NCBI GenBank assembly: GCA_020636535.1
Contig: JACJXT010000011.1
Coordinates: 776,680-840,679 of the forward strand
Direction of reading: 5' to 3'
DNA length: 64,000 nt
From: Chitinophagales bacterium
GTDB taxonomy: Bacteria; Bacteroidota; Bacteroidia; Chitinophagales; JADIYW01
Of this stretch, positions 12,530 through 61,000 are shown piece after piece; position 1 is the stretch's first letter; each line of letters begins with the position of its first letter. The position numbers and the translations under genes were made by a program. Below the pieces are notes generated by a model. It saw nothing but the letters and a program-made list of their open reading frames with translations. It was not told the DNA's origin and did not search any database.

Positions 12530-12614
12530 GCTTATTTTTAGCTTGCTAAAGTTATAACTTATTTTAGATTATTTTAAAACTGTTGTATTAAGATAGTTTT
12601 AATTGGCATATTTT

Positions 12615-12988
12615 AATGAGCATAGTATAAAATTATAAACTAGATTCATTCTGAATTTATTTCAGAATCTTTTACTACATGAATATTTTCAGATTCCGAA
12701 ACGAGTTCGGAATGGAAGTGATACTAAAGCCATTTCTATAATGAGCATAGTATAAAATTATAAACTAGGTTCATTCTGAATTTATTTCAGAATCTTTTAC
12801 AACAAGAATATTTCAGATTCCGAAACGAGTTCGGAATGAGAGAAGTGATACTAAAGTCATTTCTATAATGAGCATAGTATAAAATTATAAACTAGATTCA
12901 TTCTGAATTTATTTCAGAATCTTTTACTACATGAATATTTCAGATTCCGAAACGAGTTCGGAATGGAAGTGATACTATAGCTATTTCT
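12615..12988. repeat. Tandem array of about 3 copies of a ~125-bp unit carrying two hairpins
   Basis: Unit starts at 12615, 12740 and 12867. Each unit contains attctgaa-ttta-ttcagaat and attccgaa-acgag-ttcggaat. Confidence 0.9.
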
Positions 12989-13754
12989 ATTTAGCCAAAC
13001 TAAGTATAGTTGCCACAAAATCGGTAAAATTTTCGGCATGTACCCAATGTCGTGCATTAGCAATTTCTATTAATTGTGCATTTGGAAAGTATTGTAAGCA
13101 AGCATTCCAATTATCAACTGTAATATAATCAGATAAAGCACCTTTTATAAAATAGACTTCGCTTGAAGTATCAACAGCATTTATTGTAGGAAAGTCCATG
13201 ATAATTTCATAGTCTTTTACTAGAATAGGCAAATTACATTTCCATTCAAAACCAGTACTATCTCTTTTCAAATTTTTCAAGACCAATTGTACAATGGCAT
13301 TACTTTTTATTTGTTGATGCAATTCAACTTCTATATCTTTTCGTTGATGATATTGACCAAGTTGCAAGTGTTGCATTGCATCGAGAATGATTTGATGGTC
13401 GCCTTTGTATTTTACTGGTGCAATATCTACCATAAACAATTGATGAATTAATGCTGGTTGAATTAATGCTAAATATGCAGCTGTTTTTCCACCCATTGAG
13501 TGTCCAATAATACTTGTTTTTGTAATTTGGTGTTGTTGACAAAAATCGATAATATCATTTGCCATTAACTCGTAAGACATTGAATTTGTATGTGGCGACT
13601 TACCATGATTTCTCGCATCAATTAAATAAATTGTAAACTGTTCTTCTAATGCTTTGGCTATGGTTTGAAAATTGTCTAAACTGCCTAAAAAACCGTGCAG
13701 AATAATTAAATGTTGATTACCAGAACCAAATTTTTTATAATTGAGTTGTAGCAT
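12987..13754 (-). CDS. Alpha/beta-fold hydrolase (esterase-like)
   Basis: Nucleophile elbow GHSMGG, an HG oxyanion motif (ILHGFLGS) and a C-terminal His (ARHWVH). Confidence 0.85.
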   Translation of the reverse strand: MLQLNYKKFGSGNQHLIILHGFLGSLDNFQTIAKALEEQFTIYLIDARNHGKSPHTNSMSYELMANDIIDFCQQHQITKTSIIGHSMGGKTAAYLALIQPALIHQLFMVDIAPVKYKGDHQIILDAMQHLQLGQYHQRKDIEVELHQQIKSNAIVQLVLKNLKRDSTGFEWKCNLPILVKDYEIIMDFPTINAVDTSSEVYFIKGALSDYITVDNWNACLQYFPNAQLIEIANARHWVHAENFTDFVATILSLAK

Positions 13755-14668: not shown

Positions 14669-14760
14669 GTTGCAAAATACAAATTTTTGTTGTTAGCATG
14701 CGTTAATAAGGTTTAATGTGTGTTCTACTTGAATAATATTAAAGTGCATTAATGCCTATT

Positions 14761-15465
14761 TGGAGACACTTCGCTATCGCTCAGTGTGACGGTCTGTTGT
14801 TTGGGTGTGACGGTTTGCCTGCTGTGCATAAGACAATGTTGGCTCGGCACAGTGTAATGTTACTTGGGCATAGTTGTATGTCTAGCTGGAGACGCTTCGC
14901 TATTGCTCAGTGTGACTGTTTGTTGTTTGGGTGTGACGGTTTGCCTGCTGGACATAAGACAATGTTGGCTCGGCAAAGTGTAATGTTACTTGGGCATAGT
15001 TGTATGTCTAGCTGGAGACACTTCGTTATTGCTCAGTGTGACTGTTTGTTGTTTGGGTGTGACGGTTTGCCTGCTGGTCATAAGACAATGTTGGCTCGGC
15101 ACAGTATAATGTTACTTGGGCATAGTTGTATGTCTAGCTGGAGACGCTTCGCTATTGCTCAGTGTGACTGTTTGTTGTTTGGGCGTGACGGTTTGCCTTT
15201 TGGGCATAAGACAATGTTGGCTCGGCACAGTATAATGTTACTTGGGCATAGTTGTATGTCTAGCTGGAGACACTTCGCTATTGCTCAGTGTGACGGTCTG
15301 TTGTTTGGGTGTGACGGTTTGCCTGCTGGTCATAAGACAATGTTGGCTCGGCACAGTGTAATGTTACTTGGGCATAGTTGTATGTCTAGCTAGAGACATT
15401 TCGCTATCGCTCAGTGTGATGGTTTGTTGTTTGGATATAGCTTGTTGTCGGCTAGGCAATGAGGT
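14761..15465. repeat. 126-bp tandem repeat: 5 full copies plus a degenerate partial copy
   Basis: The word tggagac recurs at 14761, 14887, 15013, 15139 and 15265, and degenerately at 15391, giving an exact 126-bp period. Copies differ by a few substitutions. Confidence 0.95.
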
Positions 15466-36171: not shown

Positions 36172-36363
36172 TGATTTATTATAAAACAATCTCGTTTAAA
36201 TAGCGATACTATATAATAAAGCAAATCTCGTTTAATGTGATAATAAATACATTGTATAAATACCTATATTTTGGTATTTTAAAAATAAATTTGTTAAATT
36301 ATTTTTTTACAGATACATGATATTGGTTTTCTAACATATATTTGTCAGCAAATAAATATTATG

Positions 36364-36396
36364 AAGAATCAAGAATCAAGAATCAAGAATCAAGAA
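36364..36396 (+). repeat. Heptanucleotide tract (AAGAATC)x4 plus a partial fifth unit, directly after an ATG
   Basis: Read directly: atg aagaatc aagaatc aagaatc aagaatc aagaa. Confidence 0.95.
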
Positions 36397-36457
36397 GTAT
36401 ACATTAGTAGTACTACTTTGTTTACTTGCAGTATGTAGTTGCAAAAAAGACAATGAA

Positions 36458-38074
36458 ATGTCTGTTACTCCAAATATTGCCAACGAAAACAGTGTTCACT
36501 ACGGAGCAGGTGAACAAATGATAGTTGGTGAAAAGCTACCCAATCCATTTTCCATAGAAAATATGTGGAAGGCATACTATAGTTTGGTAGAAAAAGCAAA
36601 AAGCAGTAAAGTAATGTGGATTTATCCACCAGAACCAGTAATGGAAGAAATTTTGGATGAGCCAACTAATAAATATATTAGAATTTTACCAACAGATGAA
36701 GCTGCTTATACGCAATTAAAAGAATTACAAAATGTAAATATATTCGATTTTCCTTTAGATCATGAGATGGCAGAGGGTGGTAATTATTATCATGATCCAA
36801 GTTTACCAGATACTGTTATTACTTGGCAGTATACGGTATTAAAAAATAATGAGTTTATACCTATAAGTATTGGACAGCAACAAATTTTGAATACAGATAT
36901 TTTTTTGTACGAGAATAGCCCTTATTATCCAAATTATGATGAAGCATTTTGGGAGGCATTAGAAGACGAAGCACTATTACTTACAAATGCTACTTATTAT
37001 ATGCGAACAAGCACACCCACAACTACCTTAGCGAGCAAATGGACACCAAGTGGCAGAATTATGATTAAAGATGACCAGCTTGGTTATGATGTTGGTTTAG
37101 AAGGTGCCAAAGTGATGATAAAAAAGTTTTGGAGACATGAGGCCGCTTATACCAATGCTAATGGTTATTTTACTTCGGGTAAACAATTTAGAGGCAAAGT
37201 AGATTACTCTATAAAATGGGAAAGCAACCAAGGTGCAAATGGTTGGGATATAAGAAGTGGTTGGTATGTTCAAGCATATACGGATGGACCCAATAATAAA
37301 GAAGGTAGTTGGAATAGAACATTACATGGAACAGGAAATGATGAACTAGAGATTTTTTATGGTTCCATTCATAGAGGTGTTTACGATGTTTTGGTAAAAG
37401 ACCCTTTTGGTTTGTATAAAGGATTACTGCCTCGATTAAAGATTGGAGGAATGAATAAAAATGGAACAGGCATAACATTGCATGTTACTTCTATTGTAGC
37501 AGGTCCAGATATAAGAATTTATAGAAAAGATGACAATGGTAATATTAAACCAACTTTGCAAGTATATGGAACTACTGCACATGAAGTAGGTCATTCTATA
37601 CAAAGGTCTTATGGTCCAATGAAGTTTGTAACAGGTTCTGGCTTAATAAGAGAGAGTTGGGCTAATGCTGTAGAATGGGCTTTTTGTAATTGGCGGTATA
37701 ATAATAATAATATATACACTACGAATAGTTCTATGCTTAAATGGTATTATTGCAATGATTTTCTAAATATAAAAACGGATGATGATGAAGGGTCTATATA
37801 TACACCTTTGTTTATAGATTTAATGGATAATATTCCGAACAATTCTTTATTAAAATTAGACGGAATAACAGACAGAACTTTAAATGATAATGTTGGTGGC
37901 TATACTTTAGTGCAAATAAGTAATGCTCTAAGATATAAAGGTTGGTTAACGCAACCAGATAAGGTATTAGAAGATATTGAGAACTACCTTATAGATAACT
38001 ATACCAATTCTACCGAAAACAATATAGGTACCTACTTTGATGAGTATAATACTTACAATTACCCTAATAGATAA
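36458..38074 (+). CDS. Putative zinc metallopeptidase (gluzincin-like) lipoprotein. The coordinates give the ORF as it stands; the full form probably starts at ATG 36361 when the repeat number is in frame.
   Basis: HEVGH followed 19 residues later by E (RESWANAVEW), the same spacing as the thermolysin ligands H142/H146/E166. The upstream in-frame sequence encodes the signal/lipobox LLCLLAVCSC. Confidence 0.7.
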   Translation: MSVTPNIANENSVHYGAGEQMIVGEKLPNPFSIENMWKAYYSLVEKAKSSKVMWIYPPEPVMEEILDEPTNKYIRILPTDEAAYTQLKELQNVNIFDFPLDHEMAEGGNYYHDPSLPDTVITWQYTVLKNNEFIPISIGQQQILNTDIFLYENSPYYPNYDEAFWEALEDEALLLTNATYYMRTSTPTTTLASKWTPSGRIMIKDDQLGYDVGLEGAKVMIKKFWRHEAAYTNANGYFTSGKQFRGKVDYSIKWESNQGANGWDIRSGWYVQAYTDGPNNKEGSWNRTLHGTGNDELEIFYGSIHRGVYDVLVKDPFGLYKGLLPRLKIGGMNKNGTGITLHVTSIVAGPDIRIYRKDDNGNIKPTLQVYGTTAHEVGHSIQRSYGPMKFVTGSGLIRESWANAVEWAFCNWRYNNNNIYTTNSSMLKWYYCNDFLNIKTDDDEGSIYTPLFIDLMDNIPNNSLLKLDGITDRTLNDNVGGYTLVQISNALRYKGWLTQPDKVLEDIENYLIDNYTNSTENNIGTYFDEYNTYNYPNR

Positions 38075-38086
38075 AATTTTAGAAAT

Positions 38087-38524
38087 ATGAAAAATTTAAT
38101 CATTTTATTTGTAGTATTTGTAGCTATATCTTGTAAAACAATTTATCCCATACCGAATGAAAGAATAGTTGGCTTTTTTAATAATACCAATAAGGTATTA
38201 TTGTTTAAGTTCTACGATTTGGATGGTTATACAGATAGTTTGACATTTACTTTACAGCCAAATACTGAAATATATCCTGCAGCATTTAATGATAGAGAAC
38301 CATCTGATTTATTACAAGATTCTTTGTATTTAATGTATGATAATACAAAACACCAAATATTTCTAAAATCAGACACTAATTATAATAGCACTAATAGAAA
38401 TGTTTTTTTTACTGATTCCATAAGTTATAAGCGAGAAGATATATTTCAAGGAAAGAATTATCTTTATAAATACACCTACACATTTACCGAAGCAGATTAT
38501 GCAGCAGCAGATTCTATTCCTTAA
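38087..38524 (+). CDS. Small lipoprotein, paralog 1 of 4, ending in TEADYAAADSIP
   Basis: Signal peptide plus lipobox (VAISC). It starts 13 nt after the metallopeptidase stop and carries the shared C-terminal dodecapeptide. Confidence 0.75.
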   Translation: MKNLIILFVVFVAISCKTIYPIPNERIVGFFNNTNKVLLFKFYDLDGYTDSLTFTLQPNTEIYPAAFNDREPSDLLQDSLYLMYDNTKHQIFLKSDTNYNSTNRNVFFTDSISYKREDIFQGKNYLYKYTYTFTEADYAAADSIP

Positions 38525-38549
38525 AATAATTTAATTGGCTAATTAAAAT

Positions 38550-38615
38550 CCAACAGAGAATAATATTGAAACTTATTTTGATGAGTATAGTGATTATAAT
38601 TACCCAAATAGATAA
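38550..38615 (+). pseudogene. Relic copy of the last ~21 codons plus stop of the metallopeptidase gene
   Basis: The stretch tccaacagagaataatattgaaacttattttgatgagtatagtgattataattacccaaatagataa encodes PTENNIETYFDEYSDYNYPNR*. Gene 36458..38074 ends STENNIGTYFDEYNTYNYPNR*. Confidence 0.8.
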
Positions 38616-38626
38616 AGCTAATAAAT

Positions 38627-39055
38627 ATGAAAAATTCAATAATTTTATTTTTAGTTCTTATAATAACATCTTGTGTTAAAGATAAAAATTATACAGATAT
38701 TTATAAATTTAGAAATGAAAGCACTACACTAGTAACTGTTGCCTTATTTAATAATGGTATTCTAAATGATTCATTTTCTCTACAAAATGGAAGAGATACT
38801 GTTTTAGAAGAAGTAAGTAGCATTGGTGGCGGTATACCAAGATTTATTGATGAAAGTGATAGTATCATAATAGTTTTTAATGATATGAAAAAGGTAGTTT
38901 TTTACAAAGATATTTTAAATAATAGGAACATTTTTTTCTCTTCAGCAAATATATATGATATTGAAGTGCAAAGCAATAATAAAAAAGATAAAACTACAAT
39001 ATACACTTATACATTTACCGAAGCAGATTATGCAGCAGCAGATAGTATACCTTAA
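38627..39055 (+). CDS. Small lipoprotein, paralog 2 of 4, ending in TEADYAAADSIP
   Basis: Signal peptide plus lipobox (ITSC). The core is divergent and the last 17 aa are identical to paralog 1. Confidence 0.75.
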   Translation: MKNSIILFLVLIITSCVKDKNYTDIYKFRNESTTLVTVALFNNGILNDSFSLQNGRDTVLEEVSSIGGGIPRFIDESDSIIIVFNDMKKVVFYKDILNNRNIFFSSANIYDIEVQSNNKKDKTTIYTYTFTEADYAAADSIP

Positions 39056-39100
39056 AATAATTTGTATATTTATCAATTATTTAATTGACTAATTATAACT

Positions 39101-39529
39101 ATGAAAACAATATTTTATTTAGTGCTAGCAGTATTCTTGATAATAGCTTGTGAAGAGCCAACAGATACAGGTTATAGTTCAATTTATCATATATATGAAA
39201 ATAAAAGTTCTGTACCTATAACAATCTCATACAAAAATGGTAGTGAAACTGCTTTGGTCTTTTATATTGACAATAATAAAGAAGAAGTTTTTTTTGTTAG
39301 AAAAGGCATGTTAGAAAATTTAGCATTTATTGATACTGCATATATTTATTTTAATAATGAAAAACAGTTGGTATATTCAAAAAGCAATATTACGAATGAA
39401 AGTAGAAGCATTTTTAATGAACAAAATAATTTTACCAAAGAAACTATTACCATTAACGGAAAAGAAGAAACAGCATATAGGTATATCATCACCGAAGCAG
39501 ATTACGCAGCAGCAGATAGTATACCTTAA
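39101..39529 (+). CDS. Small lipoprotein, paralog 3 of 4, ending in TEADYAAADSIP
   Basis: Signal peptide plus lipobox (IIAC). Its N-terminal ~40 aa and C-terminal ~45 aa match paralog 4 almost exactly, while the core is divergent. Confidence 0.75.
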   Translation: MKTIFYLVLAVFLIIACEEPTDTGYSSIYHIYENKSSVPITISYKNGSETALVFYIDNNKEEVFFVRKGMLENLAFIDTAYIYFNNEKQLVYSKSNITNESRSIFNEQNNFTKETITINGKEETAYRYIITEADYAAADSIP

Positions 39530-39575
39530 TAATAATTTGTAAATTTATCAATTATTTAATTGACTAATTATAACT

Positions 39576-40007
39576 ATGAAAACAATATTTTATTTAGTGC
39601 TAGCAGTATTCTTGATAATAGCTTGTGAAGAGCCAACAGATACAGGTTATAGTTCAATTTATCATATATACGAAAATAAAAGTTCTGTTCCTATAGTGAT
39701 ATTATACAAAAATAATAATGGTTCTTTCTTGGATATTGATATTGCTAACAATGAAGAAAAAGAGTATTTAGCAATAAAAGGTATGATTGTTTATATTGCA
39801 TTTGATACTGCTTATATTTACTTTAATAATGAAAAGCAATTAGTATATAATGCTTATAATAGCAATGGTACAAATGGGAATAGAAGTATTTTTGATGAGC
39901 AAAATAATTTTACAAAAGAAACCATTACCATTAACGGAAAAGAAGAAACAGCATATCGATATATTATTACCGAAGCAGATTATGCAGCAGCAGATAGTAT
40001 ACCTTAA
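39576..40007 (+). CDS. Small lipoprotein, paralog 4 of 4, ending in TEADYAAADSIP
   Basis: Same features as paralog 3. The start is offset by 475 bp from paralog 3. Confidence 0.75.
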   Translation: MKTIFYLVLAVFLIIACEEPTDTGYSSIYHIYENKSSVPIVILYKNNNGSFLDIDIANNEEKEYLAIKGMIVYIAFDTAYIYFNNEKQLVYNAYNSNGTNGNRSIFDEQNNFTKETITINGKEETAYRYIITEADYAAADSIP

Positions 40008-40020
40008 CAAGAGACCAACT

Positions 40021-40046
40021 ATGTCAAAATTTTAAACTTTTGACAT
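40021..40046 (+). terminator. Possible terminator hairpin after the lipoprotein array
   Basis: atgtcaaaa-ttttaaac-ttttgacat forms a 9-bp AT-rich stem. The T tract after it is weak. Confidence 0.35.
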
Positions 40047-55000: not shown

Positions 55001-58000
55001 AGTAAACTCTTATCTCGCAATTAAATATGGTATTACTTTAGATCAAAGACAATATAATGATTATACAGCAAGTGATGGTACAGTAGTATATGCTGCTTCT
55101 ACTTATGGAGCTTACAATCACGATATTGCAGGTATTGGCGTTGATACTTGTTCTGGCTTAATTCAAAAACAATCAAAAAGTGTAAATATTGGTTTCCAAC
55201 CTGCAGTCAGCTTAAATGATGGTTTAGCAACTTCAAATAGTGCTAATATGAATTCATTTGATGCAAATAATAGTTATTGGGTTGCTGGTCACAATGGTCA
55301 AGATACTACATTTACAGAAGCATATACTTCCCAAACACTTGCTACACTTAGTTGTATGAAAATTATGGATAGAAAATGGAAAGTAGAAGAAACAGGATCT
55401 ATTGGAAATGTTACCATTACTATTCCAGATATCACTACAGCAACAATAACAGCTATTTATTTGGTAATTGATAGTACTGGAAACAATGATGATTTTACGG
55501 CTAATACTACAGAAATATTAATGACTGATGCAGGTGCTGGATTATTGTCTGCTCAGTACGATTTTGTCGATGGTCAATACTATTCGTTTGCTTATGTATT
55601 AGCACCAATTGATACTTTTGAAATAGCAGACACTATCTGTGCAACTTCAACTTATCTATTCAATGAACAAGAATTAAATACAAGTGGTGTCTACTTAGAT
55701 ACTATTCCAAGAATAGGTAATTGCGATAGTATAGTGAGATTAACACTTACCGTAGTACCACAAGACACATTCGACATAGCAGATACTATTTGCTCCAATG
55801 AAACATATACATTTGGTGCATTAACACTGAATACCACAGGCGTTTACTTAGATACAATAGAACGACCAACAGAAGTATGCGATAGCATAGTACGATTAAC
55901 ACTTACCGTAATACCACAAGACACATTCGACATAGTAGATACTATTTGTGCAACAACAACTGATTATACATTTGGAGGATTAGTATTAACCGAGTCAGGA
56001 ATTTACTTAGATACAATAGCACGACCAACAGAATACTGCGATAGTATAGTAAGATTAACACTTACCGTAGTACCACAAGACACCTTTGAAATATCAGCTT
56101 CAATCTGCACAGGTCAAACATACAGTTTTGGAGGAATGTCACTCAATGCCACAGGCGTATACTTAGACACTATATTACAACCAACTAAACCATGCGATAG
56201 CATAGTACGATTAACTTTAACAGTAGTAGATAAAGATACATTTGACATAGTAGATACCATTTGTTCAATCGAATCGTATAGCTTCGATGGTATGTTATTG
56301 AATATCACAGGCGTTTACTTTAAAACAGTAACTCGTCCAATGTCATGCGACAGTATCGTACGATTAACCTTAACAGTAATCCAACAAGACACAACAGACA
56401 TAAGTGCAACAATATGTTCAAACGAGAACTATAGTTTCGATGGAATGTCACTCAATACCACAGGCGTATACTTAGCTACAATAGCACGACCAACGGAAGT
56501 ATGCGATAGTATAGTGAGATTAACACTTACCGTAGTACCACAAGACACATTCGACATAGCAGATACTATTTGCTCCAATGAAACATATACATTTGGTGCA
56601 TTAACACTGAATACCACAGGCGTTTATTTAGATACAATAGAACGACCAACAGAAGTATGCGATAGCATAGTACGATTAACACTTACCGTAATACCACAAG
56701 ACACATTCGACATAGCAGATACTATTTGTGCAACAACAACTGATTATACATTTGGTGGATTAGTATTAACCGAGTCAGGAATTTACTTAGATACAATAGC
56801 ACGACCAACAGAATACTGCGATAGTATAGTAAGATTAACACTTACCGTAGTACCACAAGACACCTTTGAAATATCAGCTTCAATCTGCACAGGTCAAACA
56901 TACAGTTTTGGAGGAATGTCACTCAATGCCACAGGCGTATACTTAGACACTATATTACAACCAACTAAACCATGCGATAGCATAGTACGATTAACTTTAA
57001 CAGTAGTAGATAAAGATACATTTGACATAGTAGATACCATTTGTTCAATCGAATCGTATAGCTTCGATGGTATGTTATTGAATATCACAGGCGTTTACTT
57101 TAAAACAGTAACTCGTCCAATGTCATGCGACAGTATCGTACGATTAACCTTAACAGTAATCCAACAAGACACAACAGACATAAGTGCAACAATATGTTCA
57201 AACGAGAACTATAGTTTCGATGGAATGTCACTCAATACCACAGGCGTATACTTAGCTACAATAGCACGACCAACGGAAGTATGCGATAGTATAGTGAGAT
57301 TAACACTTACCGTAGTACCACAAGACACATTCGACATAGCAGATACTATTTGCTCCAATGAAACATATACATTTGGTGCATTAACACTGAATACCACAGG
57401 CGTTTATTTAGATACAATAGAACGACCAACAGAAGTATGCGATAGCATAGTACGATTAACACTTACCGTAATACCACAAGACACATTCGACATAGCAGAT
57501 ACTATTTGTGCAACAACAACTGATTATACATTTGGTGGATTAGTATTAACCGAGTCAGGAATTTACTTAGATACAATAGCACGACCAACAGAATACTGCG
57601 ATAGTATAGTAAGATTAACACTTACCGTAGTACCACAAGACACCTTTGAAATATCAGCTTCAATCTGCACAGGTCAAACATACAGTTTTGGAGGAATGTC
57701 ACTCAATGCCACAGGCGTATACTTAGACACTATATTACAACCAACTAAACCATGCGATAGCATAGTACGATTAACTTTAACAGTAGTAGATAAAGATACA
57801 TTTGACATAGTAGATACCATTTGTTCAATCGAATCGTATAGCTTCGATGGTATGTTATTGAATATCACAGGCGTTTACTTTAAAACAGTAACTCGTCCAA
57901 TGTCATGCGACAGTATCGTACGATTAACCTTAACAGTAATCCAACAAGACACAACAGACATAAGTGCAACAATATGTTCAAACGAGAACTATAGTTTCGA

Positions 58001-61000
58001 TGGAATGTCACTCAATACCACAGGCGTATACTTAGCTACAATAGCACGACCAACGGAAGTATGCGATAGTATAGTGAGATTAACACTTACCGTAGTACCA
58101 CAAGACACATTCGACATAGCAGATACTATTTGCTCCAATGAAACATATACATTTGGTGCATTAACACTGAATACCACAGGCGTTTATTTAGATACAATAG
58201 AACGACCAACAGAAGTATGCGATAGCATAGTACGATTAACACTTACCGTAATACCACAAGACACATTCGACATATCAGATACCATTTGTGCAACAACAAC
58301 TGATTATACATTTGGTGGATTAGTATTAACCGAGTCAGGTATTTACTTAGATACAATAGCACGACCAACAGAATACTGCGATAGTATAGTAAGATTAACA
58401 CTTACCGTAGTACCACAAGACACCTTTGAAATAGCAGCTTCAATCTGCACAGGTCAAACATACAGTTTTGGAGGAATGTCACTCAATGCCACAGGCGTAT
58501 ACTTAGACACTATATTACAACCAACTAAACCATGCGATAGTATAGTTCGATTAACGCTTATTGTAGATGATTATATTAGAAATACAGAAAATGTAACATT
58601 ATGTTATGGCGATAGTATAATAATGTGTACGGGTAATGTATATAAAACAGCCGGAGCTTATAATGATACTTGTAAAACTACAGCTGGTTGTGATAGCATT
58701 ACTACTACAATTATTACTTTAGATGTATGTAGTAAAGATACTGTACCAGTAATAGATGTTTGTGATACATGTACAACAACAGTATGTTTAGATACTATCT
58801 ATGATATTACTAATGGACATTGGACATTATGCGATGGTAGTCAAACAGCAACATCTAGCTTAGGAAGCTACACTATAGATAGCACTACAGGATGCATTAC
58901 TTATACTGCAAATGGAGCAATAGGTAGAGATACACTTTGTATATTAATTTGTGATTCAGCACAAACTGTTTGTGATTCTCAAACAGTAGTAGTAGCTATA
59001 ATACCAAGTACAGAAACAATTACAGATACAATAGAAATTGGTACAACAGATAGTATATGTGTAGCAATAGAAGATGGTATGACACCAGACAATGTAACGA
59101 TTGTAGCATGCGATGGAGGAACACTAGACAATATCACAACACCAACATATACTATTAATGGCAACTGCGTAATGGTAACTTACACAGGGACAAATATTGG
59201 AACAGATGAAGTATGTGTAATCATCTGCGATACCGACTTAGACATCTGCGACACGAACAGAGTTGTAATCACAGTAACAACACAAGACACAGTACCAATT
59301 ATAGAAGTACCATGCGATACCTGTACAGTAACCGTATGTTTAGATACGATCTACGATATCAATAATGGTGTATGGACACTTTGCGACGGAACACAACAAA
59401 CCACTACAGCAATGGGTACTTATGGTATAGACCAAACTTCAGGTTGTGTAACTTATACAGGAAACGGAATCGTAGGACGAGATACACTATGTATAGTAGT
59501 TTGTGATGCAACACAAACAACTTGCGATACCATTAAACCAGTAGTAGTAGTTTTACCAACTAACGATACTATAACAGACAGTATAGCAATAGGTGTAACT
59601 GATAGCATTTGCGTACCAATAGAAGATGGTATGACACCAGACAATGTAACGATTGTAGCATGCGATGGAGGAACACTAGACAATATCACAACACCAACAT
59701 ATACTATTAATGGCAACTGTGTAATGGTAACTTACACAGGGACAAATATTGGAACAGATGAAGTATGTGTAATCATCTGCGATACCGACTTAGACATCTG
59801 CGACACGAACAGAGTTGTAATCACAGTAACAACACAAGACACAGTACCAATTATAGAAGTACCATGCGATACCTGTACAGTAACCGTATGTTTAGATACG
59901 ATCTACGATATCAATAATGGTGTATGGACACTTTGCGATGGAACACAACAAACCACTACAGCAATGGGTACTTATGGTATAGACCAAACTTCAGGTTGTG
60001 TAACTTATACAGGAAACGGAATCGTAGGACGAGATACACTATGTATAGTAGTTTGTGATGCAACACAAACAACTTGCGATACCATTAAACCAGTAGTAGT
60101 AGTTTTACCAACTAACGATACTATAACAGACAGTATAGCAATAGGTGTAACTGATAGCATTTGCGTACCAATAGAAGATGGTATGACACCAGACAATGTA
60201 ACGATTGTAGCATGCGATGGAGGAACACTAGACAATATCACAACACCAACATATACTATTAATGGCAACTGTGTAATGGTAACTTACACAGGAACAAATA
60301 TTGGAACAGATGAAGTATGTGTAATCATCTGCGATACCGACTTAGACATGTGCGACACGAACAGAATTGTAATCACAGTAACAACACAAGACACAGTACC
60401 AATAATAGAAGTACCATGCGATACCTGTACAGTAACCGTATGTTTAGATACGATCTACGATATCAATAATGGCGTATGGACACTTTGCGATGGAACACAA
60501 CAAACCACTACAGCAATGGGTACTTATGGTATAGACCAAACTACAGGTTGTGTAACTTATACAGGAAACGGAATTGTAGGACGAGATACACTATGTATAG
60601 TAGTTTGTGATGCCACTCTAAGCACATGCGATACAATTCATCCAGTAGTGGTTGTTTTACCTACAACAGAAACAATTACAGATACTATAAAAGTTGGTGC
60701 AACAGACAGTATTTGCATTCCAATAGAAAATGGCATGACAGCAGATTATGCAACCATAGTAATGTGTAATGGAACGCTTGATAATATTACATTACCAGTA
60801 GTAACATCAGTAAGTGCAACATGTGTAACTATTACATATACAGGTACTAGCATTGGTACAGATGATTTCTGTGTAGTTGTTTGTGATGTAGATTTAGCAA
60901 TGTGCGATACAACAAAAGTATCAATCACAGTAATAGCAAAAGATACAATACCAGTAATAGAAGTCTGCGACACTTGTACCGAAACGGTATGTTTAGATAC

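Follow-up and report, generated by a model that had tools for sequence, protein, structure and literature searches.

A putative thermolysin-fold lipoprotein peptidase with candidate inhibitor or immunity lipoproteins in a Chitinophagales genome and its relatives across Bacteroidota

Introduction

A 64,000-nucleotide stretch of contig JACJXT010000011.1, part of a Chitinophagales metagenome-assembled genome (MAG) and called the window here, contains a large lipoprotein gene with an HExxH zinc motif. It is followed by four small lipoprotein genes whose products differ in their cores and share one C-terminal end. What do these small lipoproteins do behind a putative peptidase, and what keeps their ends alike? 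A sequence-only reading of the window had offered three answers: protease inhibitors or immunity proteins, substrates whose tail is a recognition or processing signal, or variable surface antigens co-switched with the first gene. By comparing the locus with its relatives in other genomes and by modeling both proteins, we found that the large gene belongs to a family of mosaic peptidases and that the small protein changes together with one half of its neighbor. On balance, and at slightly better than even, we favor a widespread Bacteroidota module in which a polymorphic peptidase at the cell surface is accompanied by lipoproteins, cognate and orphan, that act as inhibitors or immunity proteins.

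Results

Organization of the locus

The large open reading frame (ORF) of 538 amino acids (aa), at positions 36458-38074, is deposited as protein H6553_03890. In the ORF list it precedes four co-oriented ORFs of 145, 142, 142, and 143 aa. The sequence-only reading had placed and sized these four genes correctly, but the gap between the peptidase stop and small gene 1 is 12 nt instead of 13 nt. Evidence for each feature is given in parentheses, including scores against the hidden Markov model (HMM) of the small family and proportions of synonymous (pS) and nonsynonymous (pN) differences.

36361-38074, plus strand: peptidase gene, full lipoprotein, frameshifted (OFF) in the assembly, where the annotated in-frame ORF is 36458-38074 (ORF list, sequence, homologue alignment)
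38087-38524, plus strand: small lipoprotein 1 (145 aa), presumed cognate partner (84 bits against the family HMM)
38627-39055, plus strand: small lipoprotein 2 (142 aa), with an orphan peptidase fragment just upstream (94 bits against the family HMM; AlphaFold2 model)
39101-39529, plus strand: small lipoprotein 3 (142 aa) (ORF list, alignment, family HMM, pS/pN)
39576-40007, plus strand: small lipoprotein 4 (143 aa), mosaic paralog of 3 (475-nt tandem period at 84%; windowed pS/pN)
38486-38521, 39017-39052, 39491-39526, and 39969-40004, plus strand: conserved tail TEADYAAADSIP of the four small lipoproteins (alignment, pS/pN, model)

Linkage of peptidase and small genes across Bacteroidota

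With the peptidase as bait, 80 loci were collected from species-representative genomes. A regular expression for the tail proved too strict for finding the small genes (28/82) and was replaced by an iterated HMM, which recovered approximately 100 small proteins, all of them encoded downstream of the peptidase on the same strand. Of the 79 peptidase genes whose downstream DNA spanned 500 nt or more, 62 immediately preceded one to four small family members on the same strand (38, 16, 5, and 3 cases, respectively). Most genomes have a single small gene, and arrays of up to seven (L093) occurred. The first small gene started between -53 and +22 nt from the peptidase stop in 48 of 51 pairs, with a median of 0. 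No third gene family was recurrent in the 90 neighborhoods.

The linkage was also found from the side of the small proteins. In a metagenome scan seeded with the tail pattern alone, a peptidase gene or its C-terminal fragment lay upstream in 21 of the 27 matching loci that had at least 400 nt of upstream DNA, and three of four small-protein look-ups were positioned directly behind a peptidase gene. Twelve of the 17 exceptions in the peptidase-baited set had low HMM scores (190 to 265) and came mostly from gut-Bacteroidales MAGs, where the gene stands in a conserved housekeeping context. The loci of the branch that has no small gene are L052, L053, L056, L060-L062, L065, L067, L075, L077, and L083; in L053 and L062, another set of lipoprotein-like genes comes after the peptidase.

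The module was present on a mobilizable plasmid of the cultured Chryseobacterium sp. SNU WT7 (L091; NZ_CP044508.1, 41518-43708), where both genes (F7R58_RS12800 and RS12805) are annotated "hypothetical protein." It was also present on small contigs with Rep_3 and ParE (L089/L090), and one long contig (L085) carried three modules with DDE_5 transposases between them. One candidate for a natural fusion of peptidase and small protein (P0266) was rejected, because a signal peptide and lipobox in the middle of the protein indicate read-through in gene calling.

Mosaic peptidases and covariation with the small protein

Sliding-window identity showed that the full-length peptidases are mosaics made by recombination and that the breakpoint, at HMM columns ~255-320, is a common one. 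The identities of the two halves in five discordant pairs were as follows.

Two copies on one long contig (L085): N-half, 97-100%; C-half, ~36%
L013 and L023, two contigs of one MAG: N-half, 85%; C-half, 27%
P0016 and P0174: N-half, 99%; C-half, 45%
L031_5998 and L085_2343 (reverse discordance): N-half, 58%; C-half, 88%
L025_574 and P0181 (reverse discordance): N-half, 38%; C-half, 74%

A plain difference in evolutionary rate between the halves was rejected as the cause of this pattern, since the discordance goes in both directions.

The identity of the small proteins depended on which peptidase half was shared. Where the C-halves were at least 73% identical, the accompanying small proteins were 44 to 73% identical. 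Where the N-halves were at least 60% identical but the C-halves were below 45%, the small proteins were 20 to 33% identical, a value equal to the background of 24 ± 4%. Across 989 locus pairs, the partial r was 0.30 for the C-half versus 0.12 for the N-half. Judged by these identities, the small protein tracks the C-terminal half of the peptidase.

Orphan peptidase fragments in front of extra small genes

A remnant of a second peptidase gene lies in frame between small genes 1 and 2. Neither this relic nor the phylum-wide cassette architecture had figured in the sequence-only reading.

38547-38615, plus strand: orphan relic, the last 22 codons plus the stop codon of a second peptidase copy, NPTENNIETYFDEYSDYNYPNR followed by stop (tblastn, 82% to residues 517-538)

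In 18 loci, including the window, extra small genes were preceded by in-frame fragments of a peptidase C terminus, 20 to 90 aa long. The fragments of the nine loci that were inspected ran in frame to the natural stop, and their homology began at conserved motifs (YTPLFIDL, V-x-GYT). In the four clearest cases, the fragments were closer to full-length genes from other genomes than to the resident gene: 78 to 80% versus 48% in L043, 71% versus 41% in L012, 55 to 60% versus 29% in L041, and 53 to 59% versus 42% in L036. In situ decay of tandem duplicates was rejected as the general origin of the fragments, since they are in frame and the clearest cases are nearer to foreign alleles. For the 22-codon relic of the window itself, whose best match is the resident gene, in situ decay is possible. 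The ORFs of the orphan paralogs are intact, and purifying selection acts on their tails.

Predicted fold and family of the peptidase

The following features were located in the peptidase gene, with residue numbers referring to the 538-aa ORF.

37040-37327, plus strand: transthyretin/CarboxypepD_reg-like beta-sandwich insert (residues ~195-290), the end of the constant N-terminal module (AlphaFold2 secondary structure; Foldseek and HMM hits)
37355-38071, plus strand: C-terminal catalytic module, polymorphic (residues ~300-538) (mosaic pairs compared by sliding-window identity)
37580-37594, plus strand: HEVGH zinc-binding and catalytic motif (H375, E376, H379), in helix 366-383 of the model
37652-37663, plus strand: ESWA motif with E399, the predicted third zinc ligand, in helix 395-415 of the model

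Glu399 stands 20 positions past H379, which leaves 19 intervening residues, the spacing of thermolysin. H375, E376, H379, E399, and S400 were invariant in an alignment of 35 sequences. Among 291 aligned family members, the HExxH residues were conserved in 291 (H), 289 (E), and 290 (H) sequences. In the ESWA motif, the third-ligand E was present in 290, S in 281, W in 279, and A in 274 of them. An AlphaFold2 model built on the 35-sequence alignment reached a predicted local distance difference test (pLDDT) score of 85 and a predicted template modeling (pTM) score of 0.88. Its top matches in the Protein Data Bank (PDB), as determined with Foldseek, were thermolysin 1kei (E 3.9e-4), aureolysin, and vibriolysin (E values to 2e-3, probability 1.00), with fungalysins (M36) ranking below them. 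The similarity is moderate and concerns a predicted structure, with template modeling (TM) scores of 0.49 to 0.54 on the target (0.53 for thermolysin) and 0.34 on the query. Foldseek and HMM matches of the insert were to transthyretin-like and cohesin-adjacent domains. The essentially invariant ligands and this predicted fold agree with the gluzincin-type assignment made from the bare sequence.

At the sequence level, the protein stands apart from known families, as had also been recognized. Searches of Pfam (E ≤ 1 for the window protein), NCBIfam, and PDB sequences returned no match, and the protein was not placed in a known nonpeptidase family. Neither Peptidase_M4 nor Peptidase_M4_C was matched by the window protein at an E value of ≤1 or by 35 homologues at ≤0.01. 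When the 35 homologues were scanned singly, only three weak matches to WLM (a zincin) and one to CarboxypepD_reg were obtained. The WLM match (E 2e-4, 3/35 homologues) was far under the family cutoff and was not used as an identity. An FTP/PepSY propeptide was not detected by Pfam, and the signal peptide leads straight into the conserved mature region. We filed the protein as a gluzincin with a predicted thermolysin-like fold and as a putative zinc protease. Because the sequence profiles and the propeptide of MEROPS family M4 are absent, it is not, by sequence, a member of that family.

The family is large. An indexed search listed 194 uncharacterized relatives from Bacteroidota. In an exhaustive search of clusters at 50% identity, 1277 representatives passed an E-value limit of 1e-3 and 798 passed one of 1e-10; a read-through of the peptidase and small gene 1 served as the query there, and nearly all listed hits fall in the peptidase part. 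Many hosts are free-living environmental bacteria. Five homologues (P0261, P0287, P0251, P0246, and P0264) carry extra C-terminal domains, which are bulb-lectin-like, FG-GAP-like repeats, or other beta domains and hint at carbohydrate or surface targeting.

Directly after the lipidated Cys, the peptidase family has the consensus x-K-[DE]-[DE], with K/R in 65% at position +3, D/E in 71% at +4, and D/E in 46% at +5. The surface-lipoprotein export signal of Capnocytophaga canimorsus is QKDDE, with a conservation of 16/72/48/44/23% (Lauber 2016, PMC5080379). The two are almost the same, and the peptidase family thus has the K-(D/E)2 or similar acidic motif at +2 to +6 after the Cys that is typical of the lipoprotein export signal (LES). 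The window protein reads C-K-K-D-N-E. Since the consensus nearly matches QKDDE, the peptidase is predicted to be displayed on the cell surface.

Small lipoproteins and their shared tail

All four small proteins have a signal peptide with a lipobox Cys and, as the alignment confirmed, end in TEADYAAADSIP. That this tail is conserved at the protein level had been argued from codon differences among the paralogs (tct-att versus agt-ata and tac versus tat), which are indeed present. In the last 16 codons, paralogs 3 and 4 differed by 5 synonymous and 0 nonsynonymous changes (pS 0.45, pN 0; Nei-Gojobori). Because the changes are synonymous only, the codon evidence ascribes the conservation of the tail to selection acting at the protein level rather than to a recent copying event. 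In pairs of paralogs 1, 2, and 3, the tail pN was 0.05 to 0.15 versus 0.47 to 0.58 in the core, where pN was about as high as pS. Over their first ~30 codons, paralogs 3 and 4 have the same DNA sequence (pS 0), which points to a recent gene conversion that homogenized their 5' ends; lipoprotein 4 thus has the same 5' end as lipoprotein 3, a divergent center, and a tail identical in protein. The cores had been called nearly unalignable. At the profile level this does not hold, as all four paralogs scored 75 to 94 bits against the family HMM.

A search with the four paralogs returned just five outside relatives. They were located right after peptidase homologues or at contig ends, and their tails read ..FTDADYAAADSIK, ..FTEADYAIADSIP, ..SGADYAAADTIR, and ..FTEADYEFAKD. 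The iterated HMM extended the family to 93 distinct proteins (E < 1e-13, signal-peptide check passed), all with lipoprotein signal peptides. Close to the N terminus, the family has an N-x-S/T turn with an invariant Asn; further traits are a D-S/T-x-x-I-x-F strand and the C-terminal motif Y-x-Y/F-x-F/I-T-x-E/D-D-Y/F-x-x-A. Tails are near-identical between paralogs of the same genome and different across genomes, and some members lack the motif, for example, those ending in ..EWEFEIQQ. The D-S/T-[AILV] strand fits D-(S/T)-(A/I/L/V/M/T), which we take to be the general O-glycosylation sequon of Bacteroidota, and the small proteins may be glycoproteins.

The family is absent from Pfam, NCBIfam, and PDB sequences and had no profile match to known immunity families. 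Weak matches to a type VI secretion system (T6SS) immunity lipoprotein (E 0.047) and to BSAP-5i (E 0.009) were far under the cutoffs and were not used. The family was thus assigned to no known unrelated group and was mostly not found away from the peptidase, two outcomes on which the sequence-only reading had staked its proposal. In the AlphaFold2 model of mature paralog 2 (pLDDT 79, pTM 0.73), eight strands are accompanied by a short helix at the C terminus. TIYTYTFT forms the last strand and EADYAA the capping helix, both with a pLDDT of 87 to 89, so that in the model the tail is an integral part of the fold. Unlike the peptidase, the small proteins have no conserved motif after the Cys and resemble the periplasm-facing set of Lauber 2016 (PMC5080379).

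Heptanucleotide repeat and reading frame of the peptidase gene

Two further features were mapped at the 5' end of the peptidase gene.

36364-36396, plus strand: perfect heptanucleotide repeat (AAGAATC)x4.7, directly after ATG 36361 (TRF score 66, 100% matches)
36392-36442, plus strand: signal-peptide h-region and lipobox in the main frame, KKYTLVVLLCLLAVCSC (main-frame translation upstream of 36458; homologue N termini)

No other microsatellite of this kind occurs in the window, and the repeat is not expected by chance (3 overlapping 14-mer hits versus 0.05 expected). ATG 36361 is one base out of frame with ORF 36458-38074, and the peptidase gene is therefore in the OFF frame in this assembly. 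By frame arithmetic, one repeat unit fewer would bring ATG 36361 into frame and give MKNQESRIKKYTLVVLLCLLAVCSC|KKDNEMSVT..., with an intact lipoprotein signal peptide; 3 or 6 full repeat units restore the frame. The restored N terminus aligns with the ..SCKKD.. lipoprotein signal peptides of all full-length homologues. The lipidated Cys is encoded at 36440-36442 and is followed by KKDNE, which resembles the surface-export signal. The repeat unit of 7 nt is not divisible by 3 and lies inside the 5' coding region, as expected of a phase-variable simple sequence repeat, which makes it a candidate switch for phase variation by slipped-strand mispairing. It is specific to this genome, as close homologues have no microsatellite. 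One assembly covers it; the other contig of the same species (P0124) begins within small gene 1.

Transcription signals, composition, and other repeats of the window

A plausible end of the five-gene unit was found behind small gene 4.

40021-40046, plus strand: plausible terminator, a 9-bp perfect hairpin followed by a U-rich stretch (fold -7.4 kcal/mol, z -2.45)

The five genes appear to form a single unit that ends at this hairpin. Being A+T rich, the hairpin was not picked up by a consensus terminator scan, and the promoter and terminator scans showed no difference from shuffled sequence. The Rfam scan of the whole 64 kb found no family at the gathering score. The small-gene array (38001-40000) has the lowest G+C content of the window, 0.245 to 0.258, versus approximately 0.30 elsewhere. 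Housekeeping genes flank the array: an RNA methyltransferase-like ORF upstream and a convergent gene of biotin carboxylase type downstream.

Three more repeat arrays were noted. At 14761-15434, a 126-bp unit is repeated 5.3 times with 94% identity and a G+C content of 0.37 to 0.38, versus ~0.30 around it; the array is placed between two minus-strand ORFs and is covered by a plus-strand ORF of 213 aa (14752-15393). At 12614-12990, just downstream of the minus-strand ORF 12987-13754, a 127-bp unit occurs in 3.0 copies at 93% identity. At 55722-58560, 18 copies of a 156-bp (52-codon) unit with ~72% identity resemble repetitive coding sequence for a large surface protein.

Discussion

Proposed mechanism

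In our model, gene 1 would encode a zinc endopeptidase with a thermolysin-like (gluzincin) fold that is exported by Sec and signal peptidase II (SPII) and anchored by a lipid. Its K-(D/E)2-type signal may bring it to the cell surface and possibly onto outer-membrane vesicles. The N-terminal half, comprising the anchor, the N-subdomain, and the transthyretin-like insert, would be constant, and the C-terminal half with the zinc site would be polymorphic and swapped among alleles by recombination. Gene 2, which overlaps or abuts the peptidase stop, would specify a small beta-sandwich lipoprotein, the specific partner of the C-terminal half. Most likely, this protein binds the peptidase and blocks its activity, which would make it an inhibitor or "immunity" protein for the producer's own envelope. 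The enzyme may be directed against competitors or against proteins of a host or the environment, or it may only require latency control. Paralogs 2 to 4 would be orphan cassettes, left when an incoming unit of C terminus plus partner displaced an older one and kept by selection, plausibly to neutralize the variant peptidases of neighbors. The tail, Y-x-Y-x-F-T-E/D-x-D-Y-x-x-A, is a reasonable candidate, on the models, for an acidic helix that contacts the invariant zinc site, and the variable core would confer allele specificity. The heptanucleotide repeat in the signal-peptide codons may toggle the peptidase on and off, with the OFF state captured here.

We concluded from sequence comparison that each small protein is a partner specific to the catalytic half of its peptidase, and most probably the small proteins are inhibitors that guard the envelope of the producer. 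We base this on two precedents. A constant N-terminal part with a recombining C-terminal part, a coupled gene that follows the C-terminal allele, and orphan cassettes together make up the organization of polymorphic toxin-immunity systems, and potempins, small lipoproteins encoded against peptidase genes, inhibit the linked peptidases. From the contrast in export signals, the comparison also suggests that the peptidase is surface bound and that its partners possibly face the periplasm. Physical binding, inhibition, surface location, antagonistic use, and phase switching are steps that we infer.

Several observations weigh against this proposal. Over all 989 locus pairs, small-protein identity correlated weakly with either peptidase half (Spearman 0.06 to 0.08), because most pairs lie at the noise floor, and the covariation signal comes from a minority of closely related, discordant pairs. 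A distant gut-Bacteroidales branch of the peptidase has no small gene, and a few small genes stand alone, such as L107 amid housekeeping genes. The Foldseek search of the small-protein model against the PDB gave a best E value of 7e-3 with a TM score of ~0.3, to unrelated sandwiches, and no potempin or known inhibitor was among the matches. Conservation of the tail could be purely structural, judging from the model. The 90 neighborhoods contained no linked delivery machinery (T6SS, type IX secretion signal, contact-dependent inhibition [CDI], type V and type VII secretion systems, or Rhs), which leaves an antagonistic role with no demonstrated route into a target cell. Proteolysis, binding, and inhibition are predicted from comparative genomics and modeled structures, and the putative phase switching is read from one consensus assembly.

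Alternative explanations

The small lipoproteins might instead be obligate accessory subunits, such as chaperones, export or anchoring partners, or substrate-recruiting adaptors, which dock through the tail and bind with their variable cores. Equal gene coupling and equal covariation with the C-terminal module would be seen for an obligate subunit, a constant docking tail with a variable core suits an adaptor, and the lectin-like extra domains of some homologues suggest that target recognition matters. It should be noted, however, that orphan small genes stay intact and are maintained by purifying selection even where no cognate catalytic module is present, a state that is hard to explain for a subunit and easy to understand for an immunity protein. 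Judged by sequence, the intact ORFs and purifying selection of paralogs 2 to 4 are more in keeping with protection than with service as a subunit. One entire branch of the peptidase family also lives without the small gene, and the small proteins, lacking the surface-export signal of the peptidase, may be in another compartment. We consider a subunit role unlikely.

The comparative evidence favors the inhibitor or immunity answer among the three that had been proposed and weakens the other two. That the small proteins are substrates or cargo whose tail is a recognition or processing tag for the peptidase, as in sortase-type sorting, would explain why several paralogs with one C-terminal motif lie beside a dedicated peptidase, the genomic signature of a sorting signal, and why the tail is near-identical within a genome and variable between genomes. 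The modeled tail, however, is a final beta-strand with a capping helix and not a detachable tag, and it is the entire small protein, beyond the tail, that covaries with the polymorphic peptidase half. Most genomes, moreover, have one small gene, and some members do not have the motif at all; we therefore regard tagging as very improbable. Slightly less probable still are variable surface antigens that are co-switched with a phase-variable first gene and for which the linkage to a peptidase is functionally incidental. Hyperdivergent cores with pN near pS, a tandem array downstream of a gene with a 5' microsatellite, and the suggestion of gene conversion in the mosaic paralogs 3 and 4 would all suit antigens. 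Against them stand the restriction of the microsatellite to this genome, the missing surface-export signal, the phylum norm of one copy tied to the C-terminal allele of the peptidase, and the many free-living environmental hosts.

Comparison with known systems

The closest precedent for the inhibitor or immunity function that we favor is found in the same phylum. The potempins of Tannerella forsythia are lipoproteins of 98 to 132 residues with 4 to 14% mutual identity, whose genes overlap or lie within a few base pairs of the KLIKK-peptidase genes and are cotranscribed with them; they inhibit the linked peptidase and protect the outer membrane of the producer (Ksiazek et al. 2022, PMC9890683). 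The same paper mentions an uncharacterized small lipoprotein beside a thermolysin-like protease (PMC9890683). As in the window, with its 12-nt gap, a small divergent lipoprotein abuts a co-oriented peptidase gene. In contrast to our locus, the potempin genes are upstream of the peptidase gene, and the KLIKK peptidases are secreted and are not lipoproteins. Potempins are OB-folds or 8-stranded up-and-down barrels, and they were not among the Foldseek matches of the small-protein model. They are not reported to have a C-terminal motif in common, orphan fragments of a peptidase, or a mosaic peptidase.

Polymorphic toxin-immunity systems, such as CDI and Rhs (Zhang et al. 2012, PMC3482391), resemble the module in having a constant N-terminal part and a recombining C-terminal part and in the cognate small gene directly downstream, which goes with the C-terminal allele. 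They also contain arrays of displaced C-terminal fragments plus small genes, with junctions in conserved motifs, and zincin metallopeptidase toxin domains (Tox-MPTase1-5) are known among them (PMC3482391). The module differs in that it has no Rhs or filamentous repeats and no type V, VI, or VII secretion signal and would be exported by Sec/SPII lipidation. What varies in it is half of one catalytic domain rather than an autonomous toxin domain. Its partner is a lipoprotein, a trait that the survey of Zhang et al. found for only one immunity family (PMC3482391). Toxicity of the peptidase is putative.

Thermolysins (MEROPS M4) and their inhibitors (IMPI, SMPI) offer a structural parallel. The HExxH motif and Glu at a 19-residue spacing, a two-lobed fold, and zinc ligands on two helices are common to both, and the best structural matches were M4 enzymes, including an aureolysin-inhibitor complex entry. 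The peptidase described here differs from M4 in its lack of a sequence match and of FTP/PepSY, in its transthyretin-like insert and lipid anchor, and in the modest TM score.

Two other systems share part of the logic. Serralysins have a small periplasmic beta-barrel inhibitor (Inh/AprI), encoded beside the gene of the secreted zinc protease, which protects the producer. Serralysins, however, are metzincins exported by a type I secretion system, and Inh is soluble and single copy and inserts its N terminus rather than a C-terminal element. We know of no polymorphism or orphan cassettes in the serralysin-Inh system. The SitA proteins of Myxococcus xanthus are reportedly polymorphic outer-membrane lipoprotein toxins with a downstream immunity gene (SitI) and spread by mobile elements, much like the module. 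Unlike the peptidase, most SitA proteins are said to be nucleases that work in the cytoplasm once TraAB-mediated outer-membrane exchange has delivered them, and the SitI immunity proteins are reportedly cytoplasmic, in a different phylum. To our knowledge, no exchange system comparable to TraAB exists in Bacteroidota.

Two concepts are therefore already known, namely, pairs of protease and inhibitor lipoprotein and polymorphic effector-immunity cassettes. Both protein families and the shared C-terminal motif were undescribed in the libraries and literature searched, as were the split of a thermolysin-like catalytic domain into a constant and a swappable half and the combination of two lipoprotein partners. 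A more far-reaching possibility, which we rate as doubtful, is that the module represents a class of interbacterial effector-immunity systems in Bacteroidota that is independent of secretion systems. It would comprise a thermolysin-fold peptidase on surfaces or vesicles, with a swapped catalytic half, neutralizing envelope lipoproteins that bacteria gather in orphan arrays as resistance to the variants of their neighbors, and, in this genome, phase variation.

Significance

Both families are outside Pfam, NCBIfam, and PDB, yet the peptidase alone accounts for approximately 800 to 1,300 clusters at 50% identity. If the small proteins are inhibitors, they would represent a new metalloprotease-inhibitor scaffold with a compact conserved motif and a second case in Bacteroidota, independent of potempins, of lipoprotein control over a neighboring peptidase. 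The plasmid-borne module of a cultured Chryseobacterium makes this prediction directly testable. If the peptidase is used antagonistically, the cassette-swapping logic of toxin-immunity systems would extend to a lipoprotein protease without a specialized secretion apparatus. Such an extension would matter for how bacteria compete in soils, waters, and guts, all of them habitats rich in Bacteroidota.

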